A stretch of DNA of 64,000 nucleotides from an uncultured bacterium (lineage in GTDB: Bacteria; Omnitrophota; Omnitrophia; Omnitrophales; Abzuiibacteriaceae). Shown here piece after piece: positions 23,115-64,000 of this stretch. The notes under the pieces are model-generated. The model was not told where the DNA came from. It did no database searches and saw only the letters and a program-made list of their open reading frames with translations. The DNA lies in NCBI GenBank assembly GCA_964387845.1, contig CAYLXA010000002.1, positions 211,584-275,583 of the forward strand. The letters run 5' to 3'. The stretch's first letter is position 1, and each line of letters starts with the position of its first letter. The translations under genes were made by a program, and so were the position numbers.

Positions 23115-26100
23115 TTACGCCGCCTGTCGAATCGCCTGACGGCCCTGTTCTTCAATATAGAGCGCTTCGATTCTATCAAACATGATCGTAACGACACCCG
23201 TGTAATGGTCAAATTCGAACCCGAGGCTTTTTAAGGGAAAAAGAAGCCGCGCCTGCTCTTCGGGGCTCTTATTTTTAAGGATTTTCGCCAGGGTGCCCGC
23301 CGCGCGAAGAATCGGAATGGTAAGCTCTTGAATGGCTGCTTTACTTCGAACGCTTTCCCAATTGGCAAACGCGACAAAAACATTTGTCAAAGCCGCGAGC
23401 TGACTTTCGGTTTCTGCCATCGCAGCACCATCTGTTGTTTGCGCCAAAGGAACGAACGGCATATCGGAAATCCGCAGATTGCGTGAAAGTGCACCAGCCG
23501 CCTGCGCACGCTCCACCGCATCCGTAATAGCTTTTACAAATTCATTTCGAATTTTCTGGACATGCATTCTCGCTTCTGTATCCGGAGCCGAAAATGCGAT
23601 TCGCAATTCAGAGCGGGACAATTGATCGAGACTCATTAAGAGAGCTTTAGCCAACGCGCCCTTGCCGTCAACCGTCACGGTCGGGATTCCGATTTTTACA
23701 TCCGGCGTAATAAGAGCCTCGATTGCAGCTTCAATGCGGCTTGCAATGATAGCACCTGCGTCGGTCACTTGAACTGCTGCAGGAAGAATGGATGTGCTTG
23801 TGGTTAGGCTATTTAAAGTCGGTTCTACAACTAAACTGAAAAATCGAGAATTTTGTACCGCTAGAATATCAAATACATTATCAGAAACCGTTGTGGCCAC
23901 TATTTTTGAAGCGGCCTCACGCAATTCTGAGCGATTCTCTTCCGCTTTTGCTGCAAGCTCCAGCGCTTCTTCGCTGAATTCCACAGTGTCTTCTTGCGGC
24001 TGTCCGTTCACTTTCACTTGCGCCGGAGACTTTCGCGGCGCAAACTGCTGAATCGGTTTTCGATCAGGATTGATATCCACAACCGGCGGAACCGGCTGAA
24101 CCGCCGCCCGAAGTTCGGATTTCTTAGTTTTTGTCGAATCTGATACGGGCGGAGCAGATTCAGCGGGCGTCGAGTCAGTTTCGCTGCTAATTCCTGCGGT
24201 TTTCTCAGCCTCTGCCCTTACCTTAGCGACCTTCACCCATTCAATGAAATCGAGCATGGGCCTTTCAGGATTTCGTATTTTAAGATCACCTTTTAGCAAT
24301 CCATTAATAATTTTTACCGCCAATCGCTTCATTTGGTCATCAAATTCAGTGCTTTTAATAATAAAGCTCTGATTGCTTTCTGTCATGTTAAGCGCCATTA
24401 GCGCAATGCCCAATAAATCGCGCGTTGCATTCAACGGAAATTGAATGGTTTTCGATAGTTTTGGAAGGCGGTCGTTCAGTTTAACCATGACACCGCTTCT
24501 ATTAAAAATGATGTCGAATTGTCTATCAGTCAGGTTCATGTCCTTTTTCAATTGCTCCGGATTTTCTTTCGTTGAAAAAGCCAGCGCCCAATCAAGGACA
24601 ACTGGTCCGTTATCCGTTTCAATGATATTAGGCAGGCCCAGATCATTGTGAACGACACCGGCCTGATGTGCATAATCGATGATTTGAGCGACTTGGAGCA
24701 ATAAATCTGAAGAGCGAATGGGTTTGGTTCCCGGTTTTTCAAACCGAAGCCAAAGCTGAGGGCGGTTATTTTCCGAGCTCCCAACCACGCCGCTGCGGGC
24801 ACTAAATGGAAACCCTTCTTGCCATCCATTCGGATTAAGAAGTTTGATGAACTCATTTTCTCTGACGAGCAAGCGATGGTGAATTTTTATTTCATTTTCA
24901 AGACGCCTGTTGAAATCGTCCTTTTCATCCTCAGCCACACCATTGTTATAATCCTCCATTCCCGGCAGAACTTCCTTGACTATATTGAGCTCCCCGGTGC
25001 GCTCATTAATTACAAGGGTAATGTGAGATACCTCATGGGGACGTGGCGGACGGCTTCTTTTGATGACTTCAGCGTAATATAACTGCTTGCGAGGCTTGAA
25101 AGAAAAACTCCAGACCATTCGGCTTCTTACCTTAATATCATTTGCATTTCTTACTTTAATAATTTTATTCTCTTCGATATACCGAAGCGGCGTATCGCCG
25201 TCATGATCTTCCCAGATACGTCCGCGTATTGTTTTGCGCGATAATTCAAACACGCGCGCCCGCACGCGCTCTTCAGACTCGGAAACGATAAGCACGCGCC
25301 CGCTCAAAATCAAAGCGTTCACGATGTATGGCGTATGAACCGGAGAATCAGCGTCTATAATCATTCGCTGGCGTTCGTTTCGATCTTTTATAATTTGTTT
25401 GTCGTTCAGCACAACAATGCGATCCTTTTTTGGAATTCCTAACTTGTCGGCTAATTTTGTCATCCAGAAATGTTTCTTTAGCTGATCTTTTGTTAAACCG
25501 AGTTCATTGTCTTTATGCCGAAGCTCGGAGCGGCTGGGTTCGTCGCTATCCCTCCCTGTGCCGGACGGAAGCATATTTGGCCAGAAACGTGGCGTAATGT
25601 GCCAAGCAACCAAAAGCCCGAATCCTGCCGAAAGCGACACTGTCGCAAGAATTGAATAAACCATTTCCGGAATTTGTTGGGCAAGAAGCGGAACATTGAA
25701 GCGCAGTTCGGATTTCTGAGGCGTTAAATTACCGGAGATCACCTCAGCTTGCTTTTCCTCAATGATCGCCGTTGCTCGGCTGGAGGCTTCGATTTGCCGG
25801 TTTTGATCATCAATTAAAGCACTGGCTTCACGCGCCTTTTCCGCCAACTCGCTTGCCGAAGTGCTCTTGGGTAGAAATGATGAGATTTGTTTGAGACGGC
25901 GAAGTTCGACACGTTGAGCAGCCACCCGTTTGGGATTTTGTAGGATGTGTCTACGCTTAGAAGGATCAGAAGCAATCGGAAACTCAAACCGCGGAAGGTC
26001 ATCGACATAAGCAATTAACTTCTCTTTGCCATCAATTATGGCAGTGCGTATTTCTGATCGCTGTGTCAATGTAGCGACATCCGTGACTTGAGAGAAAATA

Positions 26101-27863
26101 GCGTCCAATTTTCTAATTTCACTGCGTGTAAAAGCACGGTGTTGAAGCGCTAAATTATTGGGGTAAAGTGCCTGTGCGACTTTTAATCTCTCGTCCTTCG
26201 ATACCAAGCTTAGAAGCTCCCGGATTTGAGATTGGTCAAACATGGTTTTGCGCGTTCCGAGCATGGATTCTAGATAGATTTTCTCAACACCTTCGACGGA
26301 CGAAAGCCGCGGGCTGATTTCGATATACGAAAAGTTTTCCTTTGCGAAACGTTCCTCCAGGCCCTCCGAGTGAAATCCGCCGCTCACCAGAATCGCAGAC
26401 TGACGGCCGAGTTTTTTTAAAACTGACTTTGCATTTTCAACAAAATGTCTCTCGCGCGAAACCGCGCCTTGATAAAAATCAATTGCGGATTCGAAAATAT
26501 CATCAAGTTCGGCGGAAACTTTTATCGAATCAGGACTCACATCCCGTCTCTCGGCCAGTGTTTTTATTAAAAAACTGGGGCTGAGCGAATCTTTTTGGTA
26601 CATCGCCACCGCCACTTCATTGCGGACGAGCTCGAGCTTGAGCAGCTTTTCGAGCAGGATTGATTTCTGAATCAAATCCACCAGCGATTTTTCCTGATCC
26701 GATTCGATCAGCACTTTAAAAACAGCGGCAACGGCCTTTTCAATTTCATCAAAAAACTGAATGCCGTCAATTTCGCTTTGGAATATCAAGGTCGCCAAAA
26801 CTTTCGACAGTTCGGGAAAATATTCAAACTCAAAACCGTGCGGCGATAATGCTTGATACAAATCCTCCAGAAAAACTCTCGGCAATCTTGCGCCAAGCCC
26901 CTTCACGCCGCTTTCTAACTTCCAATCGTCAAGGCCTGCTTTTAACTCCGCCGGCACATCCAGCGCGTGGACGAGTGATCGCAAGCTGTCCAACTCGCCT
27001 TGCGCTTCGTCTAACTTAATTTTAGACTCCAAATTTTGCGCTTTGAAAAATCGGACCAGCATCGGGTATTCAATTTGAGATTTTGCGTGTGCTATATCCA
27101 TCTCGAGCCTGCTCAATGCAAACCGCTTAATGACGTTCAAAAAGCCGATCAAATCCAGCCGTTCATCGCGCCAGGCCAGCCATGAGCGTAAAAAATCTTT
27201 TAAATCTTTATTGAAATAACGCGATCCTAGGACTTCAATCTGTCCGTGGAGATTTTTTAAATAACGATCAACATTGGTGCGATGCGACGCGACTTTTTGG
27301 AAAGTTTTGAGGTTTTTCGCAAACGCTTCTAAGTTTTCAACGCCTTCCGCATGAATGCTCGGATCGTCCAAATGATCCAGCAAAAATAATTCGGCGCCCG
27401 AAAGGTCCCCGTTCTGCGCCATGTAATCGGCGATTTTTTTGTTGAGATCTTCATCATCGAAGAAACGGAATTGCTCCGGGTCAAGCTCGGATGAAGCTGC
27501 TTCTAAAAGAATTGTTTTGATTCCGTAGGCTCCGGAAATGTGCTCGATAATTTCCTTGGTATGCCGCTGCGCTTCATAGCTTCCGTGCGCATCGCGGATA
27601 TGAATGATCGCGGGCGCTTCGTTACCTGCAGCTATTACCGGCCGGACCGACTCAACGCGGCCGAGCGATTCCGGGATACTGAGATCTAAAATTCTAAAAT
27701 ACGAGGTTTGTGCAGGTTCTGCAAAGTTGGCGATTTGAATGGTGGCCGGTGTTGCAAGCGCGGGGTCAATTGAAGAAGTGGCAAGAACCGTCAGAATAAG
27801 AAAACTTGAAAGCAATCTTACTGTAAACTTATATCTATTATTTCTCAATATTTTATCTGACAT
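23115..27863 (-). CDS. giant membrane protein of unknown function (1582 aa) with TraB/GumN/Tiki-like motifs and a kinase-like segment
   Basis: It is one uninterrupted ORF. It has an N-terminal signal/anchor and an internal TM helix near residue 745. Paired motifs IIHIRDAHGS and ILVSGGFHSEG lie in the N-terminal half. The motif VVHNDLGLPNIIETDNGPVVLDWALAF lies in the cytoplasmic half. Confidence 0.6.
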   Translation of the reverse strand: MSDKILRNNRYKFTVRLLSSFLILTVLATSSIDPALATPATIQIANFAEPAQTSYFRILDLSIPESLGRVESVRPVIAAGNEAPAIIHIRDAHGSYEAQRHTKEIIEHISGAYGIKTILLEAASSELDPEQFRFFDDEDLNKKIADYMAQNGDLSGAELFLLDHLDDPSIHAEGVENLEAFAKNLKTFQKVASHRTNVDRYLKNLHGQIEVLGSRYFNKDLKDFLRSWLAWRDERLDLIGFLNVIKRFALSRLEMDIAHAKSQIEYPMLVRFFKAQNLESKIKLDEAQGELDSLRSLVHALDVPAELKAGLDDWKLESGVKGLGARLPRVFLEDLYQALSPHGFEFEYFPELSKVLATLIFQSEIDGIQFFDEIEKAVAAVFKVLIESDQEKSLVDLIQKSILLEKLLKLELVRNEVAVAMYQKDSLSPSFLIKTLAERRDVSPDSIKVSAELDDIFESAIDFYQGAVSRERHFVENAKSVLKKLGRQSAILVSGGFHSEGLEERFAKENFSYIEISPRLSSVEGVEKIYLESMLGTRKTMFDQSQIRELLSLVSKDERLKVAQALYPNNLALQHRAFTRSEIRKLDAIFSQVTDVATLTQRSEIRTAIIDGKEKLIAYVDDLPRFEFPIASDPSKRRHILQNPKRVAAQRVELRRLKQISSFLPKSTSASELAEKAREASALIDDQNRQIEASSRATAIIEEKQAEVISGNLTPQKSELRFNVPLLAQQIPEMVYSILATVSLSAGFGLLVAWHITPRFWPNMLPSGTGRDSDEPSRSELRHKDNELGLTKDQLKKHFWMTKLADKLGIPKKDRIVVLNDKQIIKDRNERQRMIIDADSPVHTPYIVNALILSGRVLIVSESEERVRARVFELSRKTIRGRIWEDHDGDTPLRYIEENKIIKVRNANDIKVRSRMVWSFSFKPRKQLYYAEVIKRSRPPRPHEVSHITLVINERTGELNIVKEVLPGMEDYNNGVAEDEKDDFNRRLENEIKIHHRLLVRENEFIKLLNPNGWQEGFPFSARSGVVGSSENNRPQLWLRFEKPGTKPIRSSDLLLQVAQIIDYAHQAGVVHNDLGLPNIIETDNGPVVLDWALAFSTKENPEQLKKDMNLTDRQFDIIFNRSGVMVKLNDRLPKLSKTIQFPLNATRDLLGIALMALNMTESNQSFIIKSTEFDDQMKRLAVKIINGLLKGDLKIRNPERPMLDFIEWVKVAKVRAEAEKTAGISSETDSTPAESAPPVSDSTKTKKSELRAAVQPVPPVVDINPDRKPIQQFAPRKSPAQVKVNGQPQEDTVEFSEEALELAAKAEENRSELREAASKIVATTVSDNVFDILAVQNSRFFSLVVEPTLNSLTTSTSILPAAVQVTDAGAIIASRIEAAIEALITPDVKIGIPTVTVDGKGALAKALLMSLDQLSRSELRIAFSAPDTEARMHVQKIRNEFVKAITDAVERAQAAGALSRNLRISDMPFVPLAQTTDGAAMAETESQLAALTNVFVAFANWESVRSKAAIQELTIPILRAAGTLAKILKNKSPEEQARLLFPLKSLGFEFDHYTGVVTIMFDRIEALYIEEQGRQAIRQAA

Positions 27864-28241
27864 AAAATATAGTTTTTTAACGTCTTAAATAACTAAAACA
27901 AAGAATCCTCCCTTCTCTGAAAAATTTTTGGGATTGAACTGATAATAAATTATGCCAGATTAGTGAAAGCAATACAAGGGTGTATTGATTTGCTAACCTG
28001 TTGTTTTATATGGACTTACAGAAATTTCTTCTGTGGAGGTACTTTTAAACTGCAAAATAAGTCAAAATTTACTTAGATTTTGAACTTTTTTTGCTGTTTG
28101 CTTTTGCCTTTAAACGCTTAATTCTAGCGCGCCGGCGGGCTCTTTTTTTTCGTTTTTTTGCATCGCGTGTCATGTTTTCTTCCTTCCTTAATTAATAAAT
28201 ACTGCGATGCGGTGCGCGGCATCCTTGCCCGCGACAGCATC

Positions 28242-28280
28242 GTATTTTTGCATCGGCAAAAATGCGCGCTAGAGGACTCG
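28242..28280. repeat. direct repeat copy 1 (duplicate of tRNA-Val 3' end plus downstream hairpin)
   Basis: The 39 nt gtatttttgcatcggcaaaaatgcgcgctagaggactcg are identical to 28425-28463. Confidence 0.8.
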
Positions 28281-28424
28281 GCGCCTTCCGCTCGCAACCC
28301 TCGCTCCAGGTCGGCCACCCGCTCCTCAAATCTGACGCTCAGCTTACTTCGCGTCATGAGGAGCTCCCTTCGAGTCCTCATCTTGCAGTGCCGTAGAGAG
28401 CTTTCCTTAAACTCTCACGGCACA

Positions 28425-28463
28425 GTATTTTTGCATCGGCAAAAATGCGCGCTAGAGGACTCG
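28425..28463. repeat. direct repeat copy 2 (covers the 3' 18 nt of tRNA-Val and 21 nt downstream)
   Basis: It is a perfect 39-nt match to 28242-28280 and includes the palindrome tttttgc-cgat-gcaaaaa. Confidence 0.8.
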
Positions 28464-28519
28464 AACCTCTGACCCCCACCATGTCAAGGTGATGCTCTAA
28501 CCAACTGAGCTAAGCGCGC
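28446..28519 (-). tRNA. tRNA-Val (anticodon GAC)
   Basis: The reverse complement reads GCGCGCTTAGCTCAGTTGGTTAGAGCATCACCTTGACATGGTGGGGGTCAGAGGTTCGAGTCCTCTAGCGCGCA. CCA is not encoded. Confidence 0.8.
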
Positions 28520-28819
28520 ATAACTCCTTATATACGTGTTAACTTCTTTAATTTAATATACTTACAGAATAATTTATTTATTTTCATGTGACTCCTAGAA
28601 CTCCTGAAATACCCCAAAATATCTCAATCCTTATCAGAGTTTTATCAGAGTGACTATAGCCAAAAATAATTCACCGCTGACTCTCACCTTATAAAGAACG
28701 TGCTCCACCTTAGCACTTCGTGATTTGGAAGCAAGTCGAGAAGGGATTTTATTAGAAAGGAGTCAGATTAGCAAGTTCTAATTGCGGGATTTTAAGCTGT
28801 CGGATTGCTCGTTTGCAAG

Positions 28820-29050
28820 CTAAAGCTTCCTTGCGACGTGAGGCCTTCTTGCTGATATGCAGTTCTGCGCCAGCCAGGAATTGATTCTATCTCCGTGATA
28901 TCGGACAGCTCGGCCAAGCTTCAAATGAGGTATCAATTTTCGGCTGGTTAATTTCCGGACATGGCTTTTTGAGATATTTAATAAAATAGCAAGCTCACCA
29001 GCAGTTAAAAGGTGTATCGGCCGGCCGTCGCTGTTCTCTTGGTTTTCCAT
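28820..29050 (-). CDS. excisionase/AlpA-like helix-turn-helix DNA-binding protein
   Basis: LLTAGELAILLNISKSHVRKLTSRKLIPHLKLGRAVRY matches the excisionase-family HTH pattern. The start was placed at the internal Met (MENQEN). Confidence 0.55.
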   Translation of the reverse strand: MENQENSDGRPIHLLTAGELAILLNISKSHVRKLTSRKLIPHLKLGRAVRYHGDRINSWLAQNCISARRPHVARKL

Positions 29051-29121
29051 CTGATCCTGGCCTAACCTCCTTTCATAATTTGTCAATCGAACCAGCACGT
29101 GCCATAACTGGAGAGGCTTCC

Positions 29122-57139: not shown

Positions 57140-60100
57140 TTTGTTTTTTCTTTCTCGAATGCAAGATAAAGCACGGGCAAAACAACGAGAGTGAGAAGCG
57201 TTGATGAAATCAGCCCTCCGATAACAACTGTGGCGAGCGGCATTTGGACTTCAGCGCCCGTTCCATGGGCAAAGGCCATCGGAAAGAAGCCAAGACTTGC
57301 CACGAGGGCCGTCATCAAAACCGGCCTAAGGCGAGTATGAGCACCTTTAATGACTGCCTCTTTGAGTCCCATGCCTTCCTTGCGCAATTGATTGATGTAA
57401 GAGACCATGACGACACCGTTCAACATCGCAACACCAAAAAGAGCGATAAAACCAACCCCCGCTGAAATGCTGAAGTGGATCTGACGGATGAAAAGCGCCA
57501 GAACTCCGCCTGTGATTGCCATCGGAATGCCCGTAAAAACGAGTACCGCTTGTTTGACCGAATTAAACGTCGTAAATAGAAGAATGAAGATTAAGAAAAG
57601 ACAAATTGGAATCACAATCATAAGTCTTTCGCGGGCCGCTTCCAGATTTTCAAATTGTCCGCCCCACACAAGTGAATAACCCGGAGGAAGTTTGACTTGT
57701 TTTTCAATCGCTTTCTGAGCTTCTGCCACAAAACTGCCAATGTCTCTTCCTCTCACGTTTGCTTCGATGGCAACTCTCCTTCTTGCGTGCTCATGGCTAA
57801 TTTGAGCAGGTCCTTCTTCGATAGCGATTTTTTTGGCTAGCTGTGCTAAGGGAATTTTTTGTCCAGAAGGGCTTGTGATGAGAATGTTGCCGATGGCTTC
57901 CGGACTGTTTCGGTACTCTTCCGGGTATCGTAAAACAAGATCAAAACGCTTGATTCCCTCAAAAACTTCACCAGCTGATTTGCCGCCTACCGCAACTTCA
58001 ATTACTTCAAGCACGTCCGCAACGTCGATTCCATAACGGGCAATTTTACTGCGATCCACTTCAATTTGAAGCATGGGAAGTCCTGAAATTTGTTCCGCTT
58101 TCGCATCCCTCGCACCGCGTATTTGAGAAATGACCCTTACAATCTCATCTCCTTTTCTTTTAAGTTCGTCGAGGTCATCACCAAAGAGTTTAATCGCAAT
58201 ATCCGAGCGAACACCGGAGATTAATTCATTGACCCTGAGTTCAATGGGCTGTGAAAACCCAAAAACCATACCGGGAATGAGCGAAACCTTTTTTGCCATT
58301 TCTTCAACGAGCTTTTCTTTGTTTTTGACTTTTCCTTTCATCATGATGTAAGTGTCTGTCACGTTAGGGCCCATGGGATCAGTCGCCACTTCGGCAGTTC
58401 CTGTACGGCTGAAACTGGTCAAGACTGCGGGAAACTCAAGTGTGGCTTTTTCTAAAAGGCCTGCCAGTTTGGTTGATTCTGTGAGAGAAATGCCGGTCGG
58501 TTTAATTGATTGAATTGACAGAGATTCTTCATCAAGCCGAGGGATGAATTCGGAACCGAGAAATGGAAAAAGCGAAAAGCTAATCACGACTAAGACAAGA
58601 ACCCGAAATATCACTTTCTTAGGGTGTGCAATTGCCCAATCGAGCGTGGGTTTATAGCGTTCATGGATAAAACGTAAAATCTTATTTTCTTTTTCCTCCA
58701 CGTGCCGGCCAAGAAAAAAAGAACAAAGAACGGGAATGAGTGTTACCGTAAAAATGAGAGAGCCAATCAGCGCCATCACCACCGTTAAAGCCATTGGCTT
58801 AAACATTTTGCCTTCGATGCCTTCCAAGGTCAGAATCGGTAGATAAACGACCGTGATAATAAAAACAGCAAAGAAAACAGGACGCGCGACTTCTTTGGCA
58901 GCTTCATAGATTTCTTCCGGATATTCTTTAGACGTAATGGGGACTTCTTCCGTCTTCTTTCTTTCAGAAAGTCTCCGAATGATATTTTCAACCATCACGA
59001 CAGCGCCATCGACGATCAAACCAAAATCAATGGCGCCAAGACTCATGAGATTCCCGGAAGTCTTGGTTGCCACCATACCGGTCATGGCGAAGAGCATGGA
59101 AAGCGGAATAGCGGAAGCTACAATCAGCCCTGCTCTTAAATTGCCAAGCAAGACGAGCAAAACGACGATAACTAAAATACCTCCTTCAAAGAGGTTTTTC
59201 TGCACGGTATGGATGGTTTTATTGACAAGATCTGTTCGGTTATAAACGGTCTCAATCTTGGCGCCTTCTGGAAGTGATTTCCGGATTTCATCAAGCCTTT
59301 GGTGGACATTTTCTGAAACGACACGGCTATTCTCGCCTTTCAGCATGATGGCAGTTCCCAAAACAACTTCTTTTCCGTCTCGCGTGGCGGATCCTGTTCT
59401 AAGGGCGGGACCTATTTTAACTTCGGCAACGTCCTTCACATAAACAGGAACGTTTTCTTTCTCTCGGATGGAAATATTGCGAATGTCATCCATCGTTTGG
59501 ACGAAACCGACACCTCTCACCAAATATTGTTCCTCTTTGTGCTCAATGTAAGCGCCGCCCGCATTGGCGTTGTTTTGAGCGAGCGTTTCAAACAATTCCC
59601 GAAGACTGATGCCGTAGGATGCCAATTTATTCGGATCGGGAATGACTTGAAATTGTTTTTCAAAACCGCCGATGGAATTGACTTCGGTAACGCCCGGCGT
59701 CGTCCGAAGCTGCGGCTTGATGATCCAATCCTGAATGGTAGCGAGTTCAATCGGGTCATATTTTTCACCTTCAACGGTATAAAGATAAATTTCTCCAAGG
59801 CCAGTTGCGATGGGGCCCATGGTGGGAGTTCCGAGGCCTTCTGGGATTTCCTCCTTAGCGGCTTGCAGCCGTTCCAAAACAAGCTGGCGGGCAAAATAAA
59901 TGTCCACATGATCTTTAAAAACAATCGTCACTTGAGAGAGACCGTATCTTGAAAGAGAGCGAACTTCTTCAACATCTGGAAGCCCGCCCATGGCCGTTTC
60001 AATTGGATAAGTAACAAGTTTTTCAACTTCGACAGGGGCAAGCGCGGGAACCGATGTGTTAATCTGCACTTGTACATTTGTCACGTCAGGCACTGCATCA

Positions 60101-60207
60101 ATGGGAAGTTTTTGGATAGACCAAATTCCAAGGCCCATTAAGATGGAGCTTAAAATGACGATCAAAATCCTTTGTCTGAGTGCAAAATGAATGATTTGCT
60201 CAATCAT
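57136..60207 (-). CDS. heavy-metal efflux RND permease, CzcA/CusA family (second system)
   Basis: The 1023-aa protein has the HME-RND architecture. Confidence 0.9.
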   Translation of the reverse strand: MIEQIIHFALRQRILIVILSSILMGLGIWSIQKLPIDAVPDVTNVQVQINTSVPALAPVEVEKLVTYPIETAMGGLPDVEEVRSLSRYGLSQVTIVFKDHVDIYFARQLVLERLQAAKEEIPEGLGTPTMGPIATGLGEIYLYTVEGEKYDPIELATIQDWIIKPQLRTTPGVTEVNSIGGFEKQFQVIPDPNKLASYGISLRELFETLAQNNANAGGAYIEHKEEQYLVRGVGFVQTMDDIRNISIREKENVPVYVKDVAEVKIGPALRTGSATRDGKEVVLGTAIMLKGENSRVVSENVHQRLDEIRKSLPEGAKIETVYNRTDLVNKTIHTVQKNLFEGGILVIVVLLVLLGNLRAGLIVASAIPLSMLFAMTGMVATKTSGNLMSLGAIDFGLIVDGAVVMVENIIRRLSERKKTEEVPITSKEYPEEIYEAAKEVARPVFFAVFIITVVYLPILTLEGIEGKMFKPMALTVVMALIGSLIFTVTLIPVLCSFFLGRHVEEKENKILRFIHERYKPTLDWAIAHPKKVIFRVLVLVVISFSLFPFLGSEFIPRLDEESLSIQSIKPTGISLTESTKLAGLLEKATLEFPAVLTSFSRTGTAEVATDPMGPNVTDTYIMMKGKVKNKEKLVEEMAKKVSLIPGMVFGFSQPIELRVNELISGVRSDIAIKLFGDDLDELKRKGDEIVRVISQIRGARDAKAEQISGLPMLQIEVDRSKIARYGIDVADVLEVIEVAVGGKSAGEVFEGIKRFDLVLRYPEEYRNSPEAIGNILITSPSGQKIPLAQLAKKIAIEEGPAQISHEHARRRVAIEANVRGRDIGSFVAEAQKAIEKQVKLPPGYSLVWGGQFENLEAARERLMIVIPICLFLIFILLFTTFNSVKQAVLVFTGIPMAITGGVLALFIRQIHFSISAGVGFIALFGVAMLNGVVMVSYINQLRKEGMGLKEAVIKGAHTRLRPVLMTALVASLGFFPMAFAHGTGAEVQMPLATVVIGGLISSTLLTLVVLPVLYLAFEKEKTK

Positions 60208-61142
60208 TAGTGTGCGTGTCCTTCTTCAAGTTCGCCTTTTAAAAGTTCAGCTTTGAGATAGAAGCTGCCGTTTTCCACAACCTGCTCGCCTTCATTAAGT
60301 CCCATAATTATTTGCACTACGTCTTCCGAAGTACGCCCTGTCTTTATTTCTTTCACTATAAATTCTCCCTTTTCATCTGGTTTTGGGACAAAAACGACAT
60401 TCGTTCCTTTTACTTCTTGAACCGCTTCAAGAGGAAGCAGCAAAACATCGTCAGAAATCGGCGCCAATATTTTTCCCGTGACGAACATTCCAAATTTAAG
60501 CAGGTGTTCTTCATTTTTGATATTGACCCGGATTTTAATAGCGCGTGTTTCGGTATCCACAGAAGGAGAGATAAAAACAAGCTCTCCTTCAAATTGTTTG
60601 TCGGGGTAAGCCACGGATTCCACGACGACTTTCTGGCCGAGTTTTAATCCTGCAAGGTCTTTCTCATAGACGTTAAAACTTGCGCGCAAAACATCTGGAT
60701 TTGCAATTGTCATGATGGAAGTGAGGGAATCGACCGAATCGCCGGGCTTGACGTATTGCGCGAGCACAATGCCGTGGCTGGGAGATTCGATTTGGCGGGT
60801 TTCGCCCGTCTTTGTTTGAATGACACAAATGGGCGTTCCTTTCTCAACCACGTCTCCGATGTTACAGAGATGCGACTGGAAAACCCCGTTCTCGGAAGAC
60901 GTCACGTGTGAAACGTTTTCGGTTTCTGCAGCAATTTCACCAACTACTTTGAGCGATGAAAAAAGCGGCTTTTTTTCGACAGTCACAAGCTTGAGATCGA
61001 TCATTTTCTGAGATTCTTCCTTTAGATGAACCGTTCCTTCTTCTTCGTGATGCTCACCTTCTTGTTTATCATGAGATTTCGTGCAGCCACCACATCCAGA
61101 AAGCATTGAAATCATGAAGCACAGTAAAATTAACCTAATCAT
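60207..61142 (-). CDS. RND efflux periplasmic adaptor lipoprotein
   Basis: The lipobox is LSGCGGC. HlyD-like beta-barrel and lipoyl domains follow, over 311 aa. Confidence 0.8.
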   Translation of the reverse strand: MIRLILLCFMISMLSGCGGCTKSHDKQEGEHHEEEGTVHLKEESQKMIDLKLVTVEKKPLFSSLKVVGEIAAETENVSHVTSSENGVFQSHLCNIGDVVEKGTPICVIQTKTGETRQIESPSHGIVLAQYVKPGDSVDSLTSIMTIANPDVLRASFNVYEKDLAGLKLGQKVVVESVAYPDKQFEGELVFISPSVDTETRAIKIRVNIKNEEHLLKFGMFVTGKILAPISDDVLLLPLEAVQEVKGTNVVFVPKPDEKGEFIVKEIKTGRTSEDVVQIIMGLNEGEQVVENGSFYLKAELLKGELEEGHAH

Positions 61143-62416
61143 CGCTTGACCCCTTCCGGAATGGGTGTCGCCTGAATCACACGCTCAAGTTCGGCCACCC
61201 TTTCTTTGTAGTTTCTCAGTGCATTGAAATACGCAAGACGCGTTTCTTTGATCGTTTTGATGTTTTCAAGAAAAGTGAGAAATGGAATTTCACCACCCTC
61301 ATAACGAAGTGTCACTTGACGCAAAAGTTCGTTGGCTTCATCGAGTGCTCTTTTTTGGAGCGCAACTTGTTTATCAGCAAGTTCCGCTTCAAGAAATGCT
61401 TCATACACCTCAAGACCGACTCTGCGCTTTAAAGCTTCCAGAATGATTTGCTGTTTTTCTTTTTCTGCTTTTGCTTCTTTGACTTCTCCCAAATTAAAAC
61501 CCCAAAGAGGGTAAGACGCTTTTAGTAGAATGGCTGTATCGTTTTCATAATCTTCCGTAGTTCGTTCAACGCCGATTCCCATTTTGGGCAAGATGACTTT
61601 TAAAAGAGCTGACCACTGGCTTTTCTTTCGAGATTTTAATCTTGTAGTTTCATTTCGGATATCCGCTCTATTTTCGAGGGCCTGCTCCATGATCTGGGCA
61701 TATTGCAATTGAAGCGTTTCATAGCCAAGGGAATCGCTTAACTCAAGCGGAGAATCGACGGAACGACCTAACGCAAGATTCAGCTCTCCTCTCGATACTT
61801 TTAAATTTTTCTCTGCAACGAGCAAGTCGTTTTCTGAACGCGATACCTCAATTCTTGCCCGAATGACCTCACTTTGAAGAGCGCTTCCTGATTGAAAGCG
61901 TGTTTCTACCCGAGTAAAGAATTGCCGTGTGGCATTTAAGTTTTCTCTCGCGATTTCAAGCGCTTTTTCATCCGTCAGAATACGTGCATAAAAACTAGTG
62001 ACCTCTTGACGAACGCGTGCCCAAACGAGTTCAAGACTGCCTTTTGCAATCTTGACATTGTCCCATCCAATCCGGCCTCTTAAAAATCGTGTGCCCAAAG
62101 GGTCAAGCGGCTGCTCTAATGCCACCGCGTCAATTTTTGGATCTCGGCCTGATTTTTCCTCAGTGGTTTGTCTTTTGTATCCTCCCACATCGATGGAAAA
62201 CTCCGGGTCAGGCAGTGCTTCTGCCTGAATCCACCTACCTGTGGCCGCCGAAATTTCTTTTCGTGCCTCAAGCATTTGAGGATTCTGCTCATAAGCTAGT
62301 TTGAGCGCTTGGCCGAGAGAAATAGCCTGCCCTTGGTTTTCTGCTGCAGAAAGAAAACATGCATTAAAAAGTAGCATAAAATATAAGAATAAAATCAGTT
62401 TTTTCATAGCTTTCAC
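61139..62416 (-). CDS. TolC-family outer-membrane efflux protein
   Basis: It has a signal peptide and two OEP repeats, over 425 aa. Confidence 0.8.
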   Translation of the reverse strand: MKAMKKLILFLYFMLLFNACFLSAAENQGQAISLGQALKLAYEQNPQMLEARKEISAATGRWIQAEALPDPEFSIDVGGYKRQTTEEKSGRDPKIDAVALEQPLDPLGTRFLRGRIGWDNVKIAKGSLELVWARVRQEVTSFYARILTDEKALEIARENLNATRQFFTRVETRFQSGSALQSEVIRARIEVSRSENDLLVAEKNLKVSRGELNLALGRSVDSPLELSDSLGYETLQLQYAQIMEQALENRADIRNETTRLKSRKKSQWSALLKVILPKMGIGVERTTEDYENDTAILLKASYPLWGFNLGEVKEAKAEKEKQQIILEALKRRVGLEVYEAFLEAELADKQVALQKRALDEANELLRQVTLRYEGGEIPFLTFLENIKTIKETRLAYFNALRNYKERVAELERVIQATPIPEGVKR

Positions 62417-62478
62417 ATGTAAAAATATATTGAATTAAATGGACGGCGAAACTACGGGCAGACGAATGGCGTCTGAAA

Positions 62479-62769
62479 TTAGAGGGCTATCGGAGGATGA
62501 AAAATCAATCCTGTGGGAGGATTGAGAACGGTTTCTGCGGTTTCGTGGGAAACAATAGTTGCCGGAAGTAAGCCGGAAAAACTGATTAAATTTTGAGAGC
62601 CGACCCATTGGTGATGGCATGAATGACAAATGAAACAGGGATGATTTTCATCCTGGCAAGATGTCGTTGTACATTCATCTTTGTAGGCAAACGCGGGCTC
62701 AATGATTGTGCAATTAATCATCCCCACCAGCGCGATCACACCAAATGCAAACAATGCAAACTTTTTCAT
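62479..62769 (-). CDS. small secreted Cys/His-rich protein (putative metal-binding)
   Basis: The signal peptide is followed by CTTTSCQDENHPCFICHSCHHQW. The start was set at the internal Met (MKKFALF). Confidence 0.4.
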   Translation of the reverse strand: MKKFALFAFGVIALVGMINCTIIEPAFAYKDECTTTSCQDENHPCFICHSCHHQWVGSQNLISFSGLLPATIVSHETAETVLNPPTGLIFHPPIAL

Positions 62770-63188
62770 ATTTTTCCTTAGCCGAAGTTTAGCACCTGTC
62801 TTTTCTGATTGCAAACACAAATTTACTTTCAATTTACTTTCCTTTCGAGTGCCCTACGAGCACCTTAAATGAAGCCCTGATTTTCCAAAAGGAATCTTTT
62901 GAATAGCTCTGGTTTTCTTAAGTCTTTCGATTTATTGCCTTATTGCCTTATTGCCGATATAAATCGAATCGCGAGATCGCAGGGCGTACGCATCTAAATT
63001 TCTTCGACTCTTTATCTGAAAACGATGCAATGAGGGAAAAAATGATTGCTTTAGGAACCTCATTTTTGAGCCACTGTTTTTGTATGTGTTTGTATTTACA
63101 AGAGTTTAAGATATGTAGGCTCTGGAGATCGACACATCTATTGCTGTATCCCCCCATTCATTGAGGTACAATTTCCACTTCTTGTACT

Positions 63189-63920
63189 TCACTTATTTTT
63201 TTTGAAATTATATTTCAACTTCTGAATCTCAGCTTGATTACGACTTGGTAGCAAGTGGGTGTAAATCTCGGTCGTCCGTATGCTGGCATGTCCCAGAAAT
63301 TCTTGAACTACTTTCAAAGGAACGCCTTGAGCCACAAGCTCTGACGCAAAGGTATGCCGAAGCATATGGAAGGTAATATGATTCAACCCTGCAGATTTCC
63401 GTAACTTACCAAATTCCCTATTGAAATTATTCACAAATGCTTTGCCATTGCTCAAACCGAAAACATATTTGCCTGTACGTTTCAATTTGCCAAGGGTCTC
63501 ACGGCAAATTTTATTCATGGGAATAAATCTGTTTTTTTGACTTTTTGTATGAAACTCCTCTTGATTGACGATATCTATTTGATTTCGGTCAAAATCGATA
63601 TCCTTCCAACGTAAGTGTTGAAGTTCTGCTCGTCTAAGACCTGTTGAAATAGTAATTGCAATGATGGCCTTCCACCGGCTATTCGCCGCTTTCATGAGAG
63701 TTTTTATTTCATCACGCGATAAAGACTGAACTTTTTTTTCTGGTTCATGCAATCTTTTGAGCATATTCTTTCCAGCGGGGTCCTTTAGCGGGTTAGCCGG
63801 CAACTTTCTAAGCTGCACCGCCCTCGTCAACATTGCGCAGAAAATCGTGAGTTCTCGATTTAAACAGCTAGGACTAACCTTTTTAATTCTCATACTTTTA
63901 TAGCTTTCCAACAAGCTCAA
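63189..63920 (-). CDS. tyrosine-type site-specific recombinase/integrase (short N-terminus; TTG start in track)
   Basis: The catalytic region reads HMLRHTFASELVAQGVPLKVVQEFLGHASIRTTEIYTH. It has only about 50 aa before the catalytic domain and an in-frame stop just upstream, so it may be truncated. Confidence 0.75.
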   Translation of the reverse strand: MSLLESYKSMRIKKVSPSCLNRELTIFCAMLTRAVQLRKLPANPLKDPAGKNMLKRLHEPEKKVQSLSRDEIKTLMKAANSRWKAIIAITISTGLRRAELQHLRWKDIDFDRNQIDIVNQEEFHTKSQKNRFIPMNKICRETLGKLKRTGKYVFGLSNGKAFVNNFNREFGKLRKSAGLNHITFHMLRHTFASELVAQGVPLKVVQEFLGHASIRTTEIYTHLLPSRNQAEIQKLKYNFKKNK

Positions 63921-64000
63921 AGATATCTGATTTAATTGATTGATGTTTGACCTTCCCCAATTTAGTGGACAGTTTGTTTAGACAGGGTCGCCTGCCTTTC

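Follow-up and report, generated by a model that had tools for sequence, protein, structure and literature searches.

An exact 39-bp duplication of the 3′ end of a tRNA-Val(GAC) gene probably represents the two junctions of a 183-bp gene-less insertion between this tRNA and a small basic ORF in the genomic window analyzed here, a 64,000-nt stretch from an Omnitrophota MAG. The insert appears to belong to a family located behind Omnitrophota tRNA genes, at tRNA-Val(GAC) in three lineages and at tRNA-Pro(TGG) in one. We favor, with a probability of roughly 55%, the interpretation that it is a CIME-like, non-autonomous mini integrative element with a functional fold, acting either as RNA or as folded DNA. 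CIMEs are elements in which attL and attR are kept and the genes for integration and transfer are lost, and their tandem accretion has also been described (PMC5704250). The geometry of the repeat, its constant boundary, the match of the tRNA fragment to the adjacent tRNA, the empty sites in relatives, the mosaicism of the inserts and the integrase traffic at tRNA-Val together argue for site-specific insertion at the T-loop. Since the insert carries no genes, a CIME-like element is the closest known kind.

The repeat at the tRNA-Val locus

Read in the sense of the tRNA, which is the minus strand of the window, the locus consists of genes for an NTP-transferase and an HTH_17 protein, tRNA-Val, the repeat region, a 34-aa ORF, a 1582-aa protein and ThrRS. 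In the related locus L001 and other relatives, ThrRS is followed by an IF3-L35-L20-PheST cluster, and the window contains ORFs of the size of PheS and PheT. Relatives of the ThrRS assign the window to Candidatus Omnitrophota. The tRNA gene is intact (28446–28519, minus strand; 68.6 bits with the Rfam tRNA model; 28445–28520 according to ARAGORN), and its sequence is identical in the window, L001, L004 and L092.

Repeat copy A (28425–28463, minus) comprises 18 nt of the tRNA 3′ end (T-loop C to discriminator A) and 21 nt of its flank. Copy B (28242–28280, minus), which is attR-like, comprises the same 18-nt tRNA 3′ fragment with 21 nt of flank. In the tRNA sense, the 18-nt part reads cgagtcctctagcgcgca, running from the third T-loop base to the discriminator, and the flank part reads tttttgccgatgcaaaaatac. 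A repeat search gave the exact 39-bp core with a start-to-start spacing of 183 bp, and a longer match of 47 nt with 94% identity (28234–28280 and 28417–28463). Within the 64 kb, exactly two matches to the 18-mer TGCGCGCTAGAGGACTCG are present, also with 3 mismatches allowed, compared to 0.05 expected from shuffled sequences (two matches were reached in 0 of 100 shuffles); no third copy is present within the window.

The flank includes palindrome A, tttttgc-cgat-gcaaaaa (28428–28445, minus), whose second copy lies at 28245–28262. The segment between the repeat copies is 144 bp long, has a GC content of 55–60% compared to ~45% in the surroundings, and contains an inverted T-arm fragment, cgagtcctc, at 28371–28379. 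In the tRNA sense, this inverted copy reads gaggactcgaa, the complement of an 11-nt stretch across T-loop and T-stem, ttcgagtcctc. A preliminary description of the window had reported the duplication with its 183-bp spacing, the palindromic flank and the inverted fragment, and all three were reproduced, the palindrome in both repeat copies.

The Lys/Arg-rich 34-aa ORF (MTRDAKKRKKRARRRARIKRLKAKANSKKSSKSK; 28069–28173, minus) lies on the host side of the insertion and has orthologues in L001 (9692–9823), L004 (3229–3327), L085 (908–1018) and L091 (96–200). Across the loci, it encodes 32–43 aa and begins with M[ST]RD[AW]K; it is missing in L092. As its start lies only 21–66 nt from tRNA-Val in empty sites, it is probably co-transcribed with the tRNA. 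A Pfam search gave no significant match for it, and exact-protein look-ups of this ORF and of the 1582-aa protein returned no record. The 1582-aa protein (23115–27863, minus) contains no Pfam domain and is only 33% identical to its L001 counterpart, even though the adjacent ThrRS is 91% identical. Its homologues elsewhere range from ~1070 to ~2570 aa, some with kinase or phosphorylase domains, and a conserved motif, ctggcataatttattatcagtt, is located upstream of it. An 85-aa ORF across the repeat (28124–28381), the only one that reaches into the bracketed segment, was rejected as a coding sequence; it is not conserved, and the L092 sequence has in-frame stops and an 8-nt indel.

Occupied and empty sites in related genomes

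The preliminary description had proposed a comparison with related genomes for the empty or occupied configuration of the site, and the closest relative found, L001 (ThrRS 91% identical), shows it empty: the gene order is the same, the tRNA is identical, and the site is uninterrupted, with 66 nt between the tRNA and the small ORF. The site is also empty in the more distant L091, where 28 nt separate the tRNA from the ORF. In L004 (ThrRS 72%), an insert of ~110 bp is present at tRNA-Val, with the identical sequence in the L087 and L093 assemblies. Its first 61 nt, consisting of the palindrome and a hairpin, are 95% identical to the window (58/61 by blastn), and the remainder is a deleted version of the window's right part, from which the folded module described below and part of the attR core are gone. 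The insert of L092 (ThrRS 77%) is ~166 bp long. Its left part, a 14-bp AT-rich hairpin, is unrelated to that of the window, and its right 110 nt are homologous to the window's and terminate in the same 18-nt tRNA fragment. A further insert of ~300 bp lies behind tRNA-Pro(TGG) in L009.

The insert is thus present in the window, L092 and L004, and absent from L001, L091 and the L085 lineage; the contigs with homologues of the 1582-aa protein in L089, L090 and L109 break at the tRNA or lack it, and are uninformative on the state of the site. On a ThrRS tree, this distribution is patchy, with L092 closer to the window than L004. The left arms are mosaic, because that of the window closely resembles the arm of the distant L004 and is unrelated to that of the closer L092. 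The pattern of the insert is therefore patchy and mosaic and not that of a fixed ancestral duplication; such a duplication in all relatives, named earlier as the scenario that would overturn the mobile-element interpretation, was not found. In the three intact members (window, L092 and L009), the tRNA-identical block begins at the same T-loop base, the C of TTCGAGT/TTCGAAT. The fragment matches the local tRNA in each case, which is Val in the window and L092 and Pro in L009.

Other relatives carry integrase genes at this tRNA. In L086, which derives from the same metagenome as L085, the intact tRNA-Val is followed directly by a gene for a 362-aa tyrosine integrase. L085 contains a 46-nt 3′ tRNA fragment, with an HTH_17 ORF before it and the small ORF after it. 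As an arm motif is common to both, L086 and L085 are the two ends of one element whose crossover lies at the anticodon loop. Because integrase-bearing elements are present there in relatives, tRNA-Val is a real integration hot spot. Directly 5′ of its tRNA-Val, L086 also has a gene for a 654-aa tyrosine-recombinase-like protein (L086:615–2579; PF00589, 1.4e-21) and thus carries recombinase genes on both sides of the tRNA, with the 654-aa gene on the 5′ side and the integrase gene on the 3′ side.

The 5′ side of tRNA-Val in the window is occupied by a metal-resistance island of ~35 kb (28520–63948, minus). Its cargo includes two RND efflux systems, a multicopper oxidase, a P-type ATPase, an ECF sigma factor, and MerC-like and DsbA-like genes. 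The tyrosine integrase of the island (63189–63948, minus, with its ORF at 63189–63920; PF00589, 6.6e-37) is missing ~98 N-terminal codons and shares 42% identity with the integrase of L086. Window positions 58123–63948 recur with 100% identity in a Logan contig, L119, which contains a full 350-aa integrase gene; window bases 63949–64000 differ from the contig. In L119 (1–1174), 30 nt of the tRNA-Val 5′ half, up to ...catggtg, and then element DNA with the arm-type motif CTGATAAAACTCTGATAAG come before the integrase gene. This 19-mer also lies just upstream of tRNA-Val in the window (28630–28648, minus), with the same sequence in L001, and it adjoins the integrase start in L119, such that both ends of the island carry it. 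An excisionase-type HTH_17 gene (28820–29098, minus; PF12728, 7.6e-11) is located at the tRNA-proximal end of the island and is kept in L001; BLASTP gave no alignment of its product with that of the excisionase-like ORF of L085.

Given the displaced tRNA 5′ half in L119 and the motif at both ends, the island is itself an element integrated in tRNA-Val; its crossover lies at the anticodon loop, and it occupies the upstream side of the regenerated tRNA. Such an upstream placement is a rarer arrangement that has been documented (bioRxiv 10.1101/2020.11.02.365908). The island is independent of the small insert, since L001 has island-type arms and no insert, and L004 and L092 have inserts with other 5′ neighbors. 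The small insert has its attL-side junction at the intact tRNA-Val, which also forms the downstream junction of the island. The preliminary description had set a recombinase-bearing island apart on the 5′ side; the island is there, but it is not unrelated to the site, as it is integrated in the same tRNA via a different repeat, the tRNA 5′ half.

The independent Logan contigs L002, L003, L091, L093 and L119 begin inside tRNA-Val, 24–36 nt before the ...catggtg junction, which fits a de Bruijn branch from a second tRNA 5′ half at island junctions. The region 5′ of tRNA-Val in L001 (1–8951) contains CagX- and TrbI-type type IV secretion genes, together with the same NTP-transferase, HTH_17 gene and arm motif as the window, and this suggests an ICE-like relative of the window island.

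The folded module and the origin of the insert

The right part of the insert contains a three-way-junction module (28263–28385, minus), predicted by folding and matched by a covariance model in L092 and L009. In helix P1, residues 28371–28379 (gaggactcg) pair with 28272–28280 (cgagtcctc); these two strands are the inverted T-loop/T-stem copy and the beginning of the tRNA fragment. A long hairpin, P2, has a compensatory change at its base and an apex that is unrelated between the window and L092, P3 is a second hairpin, and the 3′ tail (28263–28271) is the acceptor 3′ strand. The right parts of the window and L092 inserts fold into the same three-way junction. A first covariance model built from these two sequences, with L009 left out, identified a third full-length member in L009 (34.6 bits, E ~1e-7), located between tRNA-Pro(TGG), ~150 nt away, and thrS, which lies downstream. 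The L009 module ends in 13 nt of the T-loop-to-acceptor strand of tRNA-Pro, cgaatcctgctac, and the last 5 nt of the tRNA are absent from the fragment. Its inverted copy reads gaggaTtcg, compared to gaggaCtcg, such that a C-G pair of P1 has changed to U-A along with the T-loop of the neighboring tRNA. The MFE fold of L009 itself is the same junction (−59.9 kcal/mol, z −6.5).

In an alignment of only three full sequences, which was fitted to the model, 23 of 23 pairs are formed in all members and 11 of them have changes on both sides. None of 500 shuffles reaches this covariation, and slid controls are 36–43% paired. Judged from only three full sequences, the module fold appears to be under selection. 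In each of the three members, folding is better for the tRNA-sense strand than for its antisense, which may be taken as weak support for an RNA on the tRNA strand. Rfam (15) searches with permissive thresholds, T-box and aaRS leaders included, matched only tRNA in the window, L092 and L009 loci. Two covariance models, R1 and R2, gave no further copies of the module, either in the window (searched with filters off) or in additional loci amounting to 245 kb from Omnitrophota and 1.18 Mb of others. The L109 contig opens (1–25) with the 3′ end of a module, agggcgccgatccctctagcgccca, whose tRNA 3′ fragment is a variant; this end lies ~1.5 kb from the cluster of the large protein and thrS and may belong to a fourth member cut by assembly. 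Assignment of the module as a T-box or thrS leader was rejected, as no such Rfam match was obtained and the tRNA that it mimics is specific for Val or Pro instead of Thr.

The left arm of the insert consists of palindrome A and a hairpin with an AAGGA loop, HP1 (28388–28423, minus), and is also strongly folded (MFE −26.6 kcal/mol, z −5.5). In L004, the palindrome reads gttttgc-tgat-gcaaaac, with a compensatory T-A to G-C change compared to the window. The left arms of all inserts have low z-scores (−5.5, −6.4 and −3.8), whereas the flanks of empty sites are unstructured (about +1.45 and +0.81). HP1 was rejected as an intrinsic terminator; it has no U-run, and a terminator scan found none there. 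A diverged homologue with the same AAGGA loop, HP1′, follows repeat copy B (28206–28241, minus), and the two hairpins align in register with 5 compensatory pairs. The unit of 18 nt, palindrome and hairpin is thereby found twice in the window, once at the tRNA and once, diverged, after the module, and this doubling explains why the repeat runs 21–29 nt past the tRNA. For comparison, the repeat is 19 nt in L092 and 21 nt, shifted toward the flank, in L004. The double unit suggests two successive layers of insertion, and successive insertions at the same site, as in tandem accretion, are the simplest reading.

We infer that the insert most likely arrived by site-specific recombination of the tyrosine-integrase type, with a crossover in or beside the T-loop. 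Such recombination would regenerate the tRNA at attL and leave the original 3′ fragment at attR, and, lacking its own recombinase, the element would need an integrase provided in trans. The conserved junction would then be the attR-side arm (120 nt), in which the closing helix pairs the inverted T-loop/T-stem copy with the att core. The fold may act within an RNA made together with the tRNA, or in a DNA strand that folds while recombination takes place. The duplication had been described earlier as the footprint of an integrase-mediated insertion. What supports this description is the attL/attR-like geometry, with a direct repeat of the tRNA 3′ part and an intact tRNA at one junction, a boundary at a canonical sublocation (the T-loop), the empty site in L001 and L091, and the integrase traffic at tRNA-Val; against it, the bracketed 144-bp segment contains no recombinase. 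The only integrase in the window is the truncated one of the island, and none lies inside the insert.

An autonomous element with the arms of the insert was not found among viral contigs, phages, plasmids, genomes or metagenomes (the last two searched with one pattern each). In viral contigs, a hairpin 20-mer and a module 23-mer each gave 0 matches, a 20-mer of the tRNA 3′ end matched only an unrelated jumbo-phage tRNA array, and two degenerate module patterns gave chance matches inside coding DNA only. Phage and plasmid collections contained no blastn match to the insert, species-representative genome contigs contained none to a 31-mer of the repeat, and the insert arms did not match the element ends of L086/L085 or L119. 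Several observations speak against a mobile element. The attP arms of ordinary integrase systems are protein-binding duplexes, in which no compensatory changes are expected. Host-lineage-specific flank variants are present in both copies in the window and in L004, which a pure attP/attB exchange does not predict. Additionally, the L009 fragment is incomplete at its 3′ end, and the deletion in L004 indicates that not every copy is maintained.

An unlikely alternative, second to the favored interpretation, is that the module is a structured ncRNA or leader of the host, inherited vertically in the tRNA-to-thrS region and lost from the lineages that lack it. The neighboring tRNA 3′ copy would then be needed for function, for example in shared 3′ processing or T-arm pairing. 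The strong covariation in P1–P3, the better folding of the tRNA-sense strand in all three members and the inverted T-loop copy that follows the local tRNA are in line with a host RNA. So is the tight spacing in the window and L092, which leaves no space for a promoter of the module's own, such that it would be co-transcribed with the tRNA and, in the window, with the intact small ORF. Every member lies upstream of a thrS-infC-rpmI-rplT-pheST cluster, a placement that could reflect either vertical inheritance or sampling bias, as all members were found in loci chosen around thrS. However, a host RNA is difficult to reconcile with its absence from the closest relative and two other lineages, its decay in L004, and left arms whose mosaicism is at odds with the host tree. 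The tRNA block starts at the canonical T-loop crossover and equals the host tRNA 3′ end, as an attR would, two terminator-like hairpins separate the tRNA from the module in L009, and no Rfam family matched.

It is doubtful that the inserts constitute a new type of miniature gene-less mobile unit that targets tRNA T-loops, in which the fold itself, in DNA or RNA, would be the substrate or guide of recombination and the closing helix would rebuild the T-arm duplex of the tRNA and be retuned as the element passes from tRNA-Val to tRNA-Pro.

That the insert is a functionless scar, left by a large integrase-bearing island at tRNA-Val that lost all but its two ends, is less likely than a host RNA. 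The gene-less state recurs in four genomes with a constant module start position, 11 pairs covary, the hairpins of the window's two units are kept by compensatory change, and there is no similarity to the ends of integrase elements at tRNA-Val. These features outweigh a repeat geometry that would fit a scar, the use of the site as a hot spot by large elements, the visible decay of the L004 copy, and the frequent presence, at island tRNAs, of partial tRNAs left by degenerate elements (bioRxiv 10.1101/2020.12.28.424599). The insert does not fit a plain remnant, as it is gene-less in every member, gave no autonomous parent in the collections searched and shows covariation throughout the arm; nor is it random remnant DNA. 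Of the remnant and the miniature element that the preliminary description had considered, the miniature element fits better. The bracketed DNA is not an arbitrary leftover, as it belongs to a conserved, gene-less, folded family that is also found behind tRNA-Pro.

A local duplication that involved no mobile element but arose through slippage during replication or through unequal exchange, together with filler DNA, would accommodate the host-lineage-specific flank variants of the two copies (T and C in the window; in L004, G and T). We nevertheless regard it as very improbable, as the 144 bp between the copies differ in GC content from their surroundings and are not duplicated host DNA, being homologous to inserts elsewhere, including one behind another tRNA. 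Least credible of all is an artefact of MAG assembly, a chimeric path through strain variants at the repeated tRNA: many contigs of other assemblies do break inside tRNA-Val and the exact arrangement of the window is found in one assembly only, but homologous inserts with a matching arrangement occur in independent assemblies (L004, L087 and L093, which are identical, and, separately, L092 and L009).

Comparison with known systems

A MITE or IS-derived miniature element, which would carry terminal inverted repeats and a fixed short target-site duplication and occur in multiple dispersed copies, was rejected: the repeat is 13–39 nt of tRNA sequence, and neither the 64-kb window nor 245 kb of related loci contains another copy. 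In integron attC sites and in the attP(+) hairpin of CTX-phi, inverted repeats fold the crossover into a stem, and structure is conserved over sequence. The inverted repeats of the insert, ~90 nt apart, might fold in a comparable way; in all three members, the inverted T-loop copy and the repeat core are predicted to form P1, in a strand that may be DNA or RNA. Single-strand recombination of the insert might be imagined from this likeness. In contrast to these systems, the sequences contain no GTTRRRY R-box, integron integrase or dif/XerCD context. Small RNAs of the 3′ETS-leuZ type derive from the trailer of a tRNA transcript; they are short, unstructured and not flanked by tRNA-fragment repeats. 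The insert, if it acts as RNA, would likewise be a tRNA-trailer ncRNA, but one that is structured and flanked by such repeats.

Integration sites within tRNA genes have been classed by sublocation as anticodon loop, T-loop and 3′ end (bioRxiv 10.1101/2020.11.02.365908). Mycobacteriophage Ms6 crosses over in the T-loop with a 26-bp attP core and can be retargeted by small changes in attP (PMC1762012). The insert block similarly extends from the T-loop to the tRNA 3′ end, and the family similarly uses different tRNAs through small changes of the T-loop core. It differs from the Ms6-type class in that no integrase accompanies the insert and that the identity block of the window continues 21 nt past the tRNA. 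In tycheposon islands, partial tRNA copies mark older integrations displaced by newer ones (bioRxiv 10.1101/2020.12.28.424599). Such remnants are heterogeneous debris, whereas the fold of the insert is conserved across genomes.

The closest likeness is to CIMEs. As in these elements, the insert is flanked by repeats of a tRNA 3′ end, so that attL and attR are kept, it is devoid of recombinase and transfer genes, and it lies at a site used by integrases; the tandem layering in the window resembles accretion. However, the insert measures only 110–300 bp, compared to kilobases with residual genes in known CIMEs. No parent ICE or IME with matching arms was found, and an arm formed by a covarying three-way junction has not been described for CIMEs. 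A structured module that tracks its tRNA is unexpected, but it is known from three to four sequences. The use of one tRNA-Val from both sides by different elements provides a compact example of island build-up at a single gene. If the favored interpretation of a CIME-like mini element is correct, the module would count as a candidate motif of structured RNA or DNA that Rfam lacks, and tRNA hot spots in an uncultured phylum would also carry tiny non-autonomous passengers that consist of att arms only and are selected for their fold, thereby extending the CIME concept down to ~100–300 bp.
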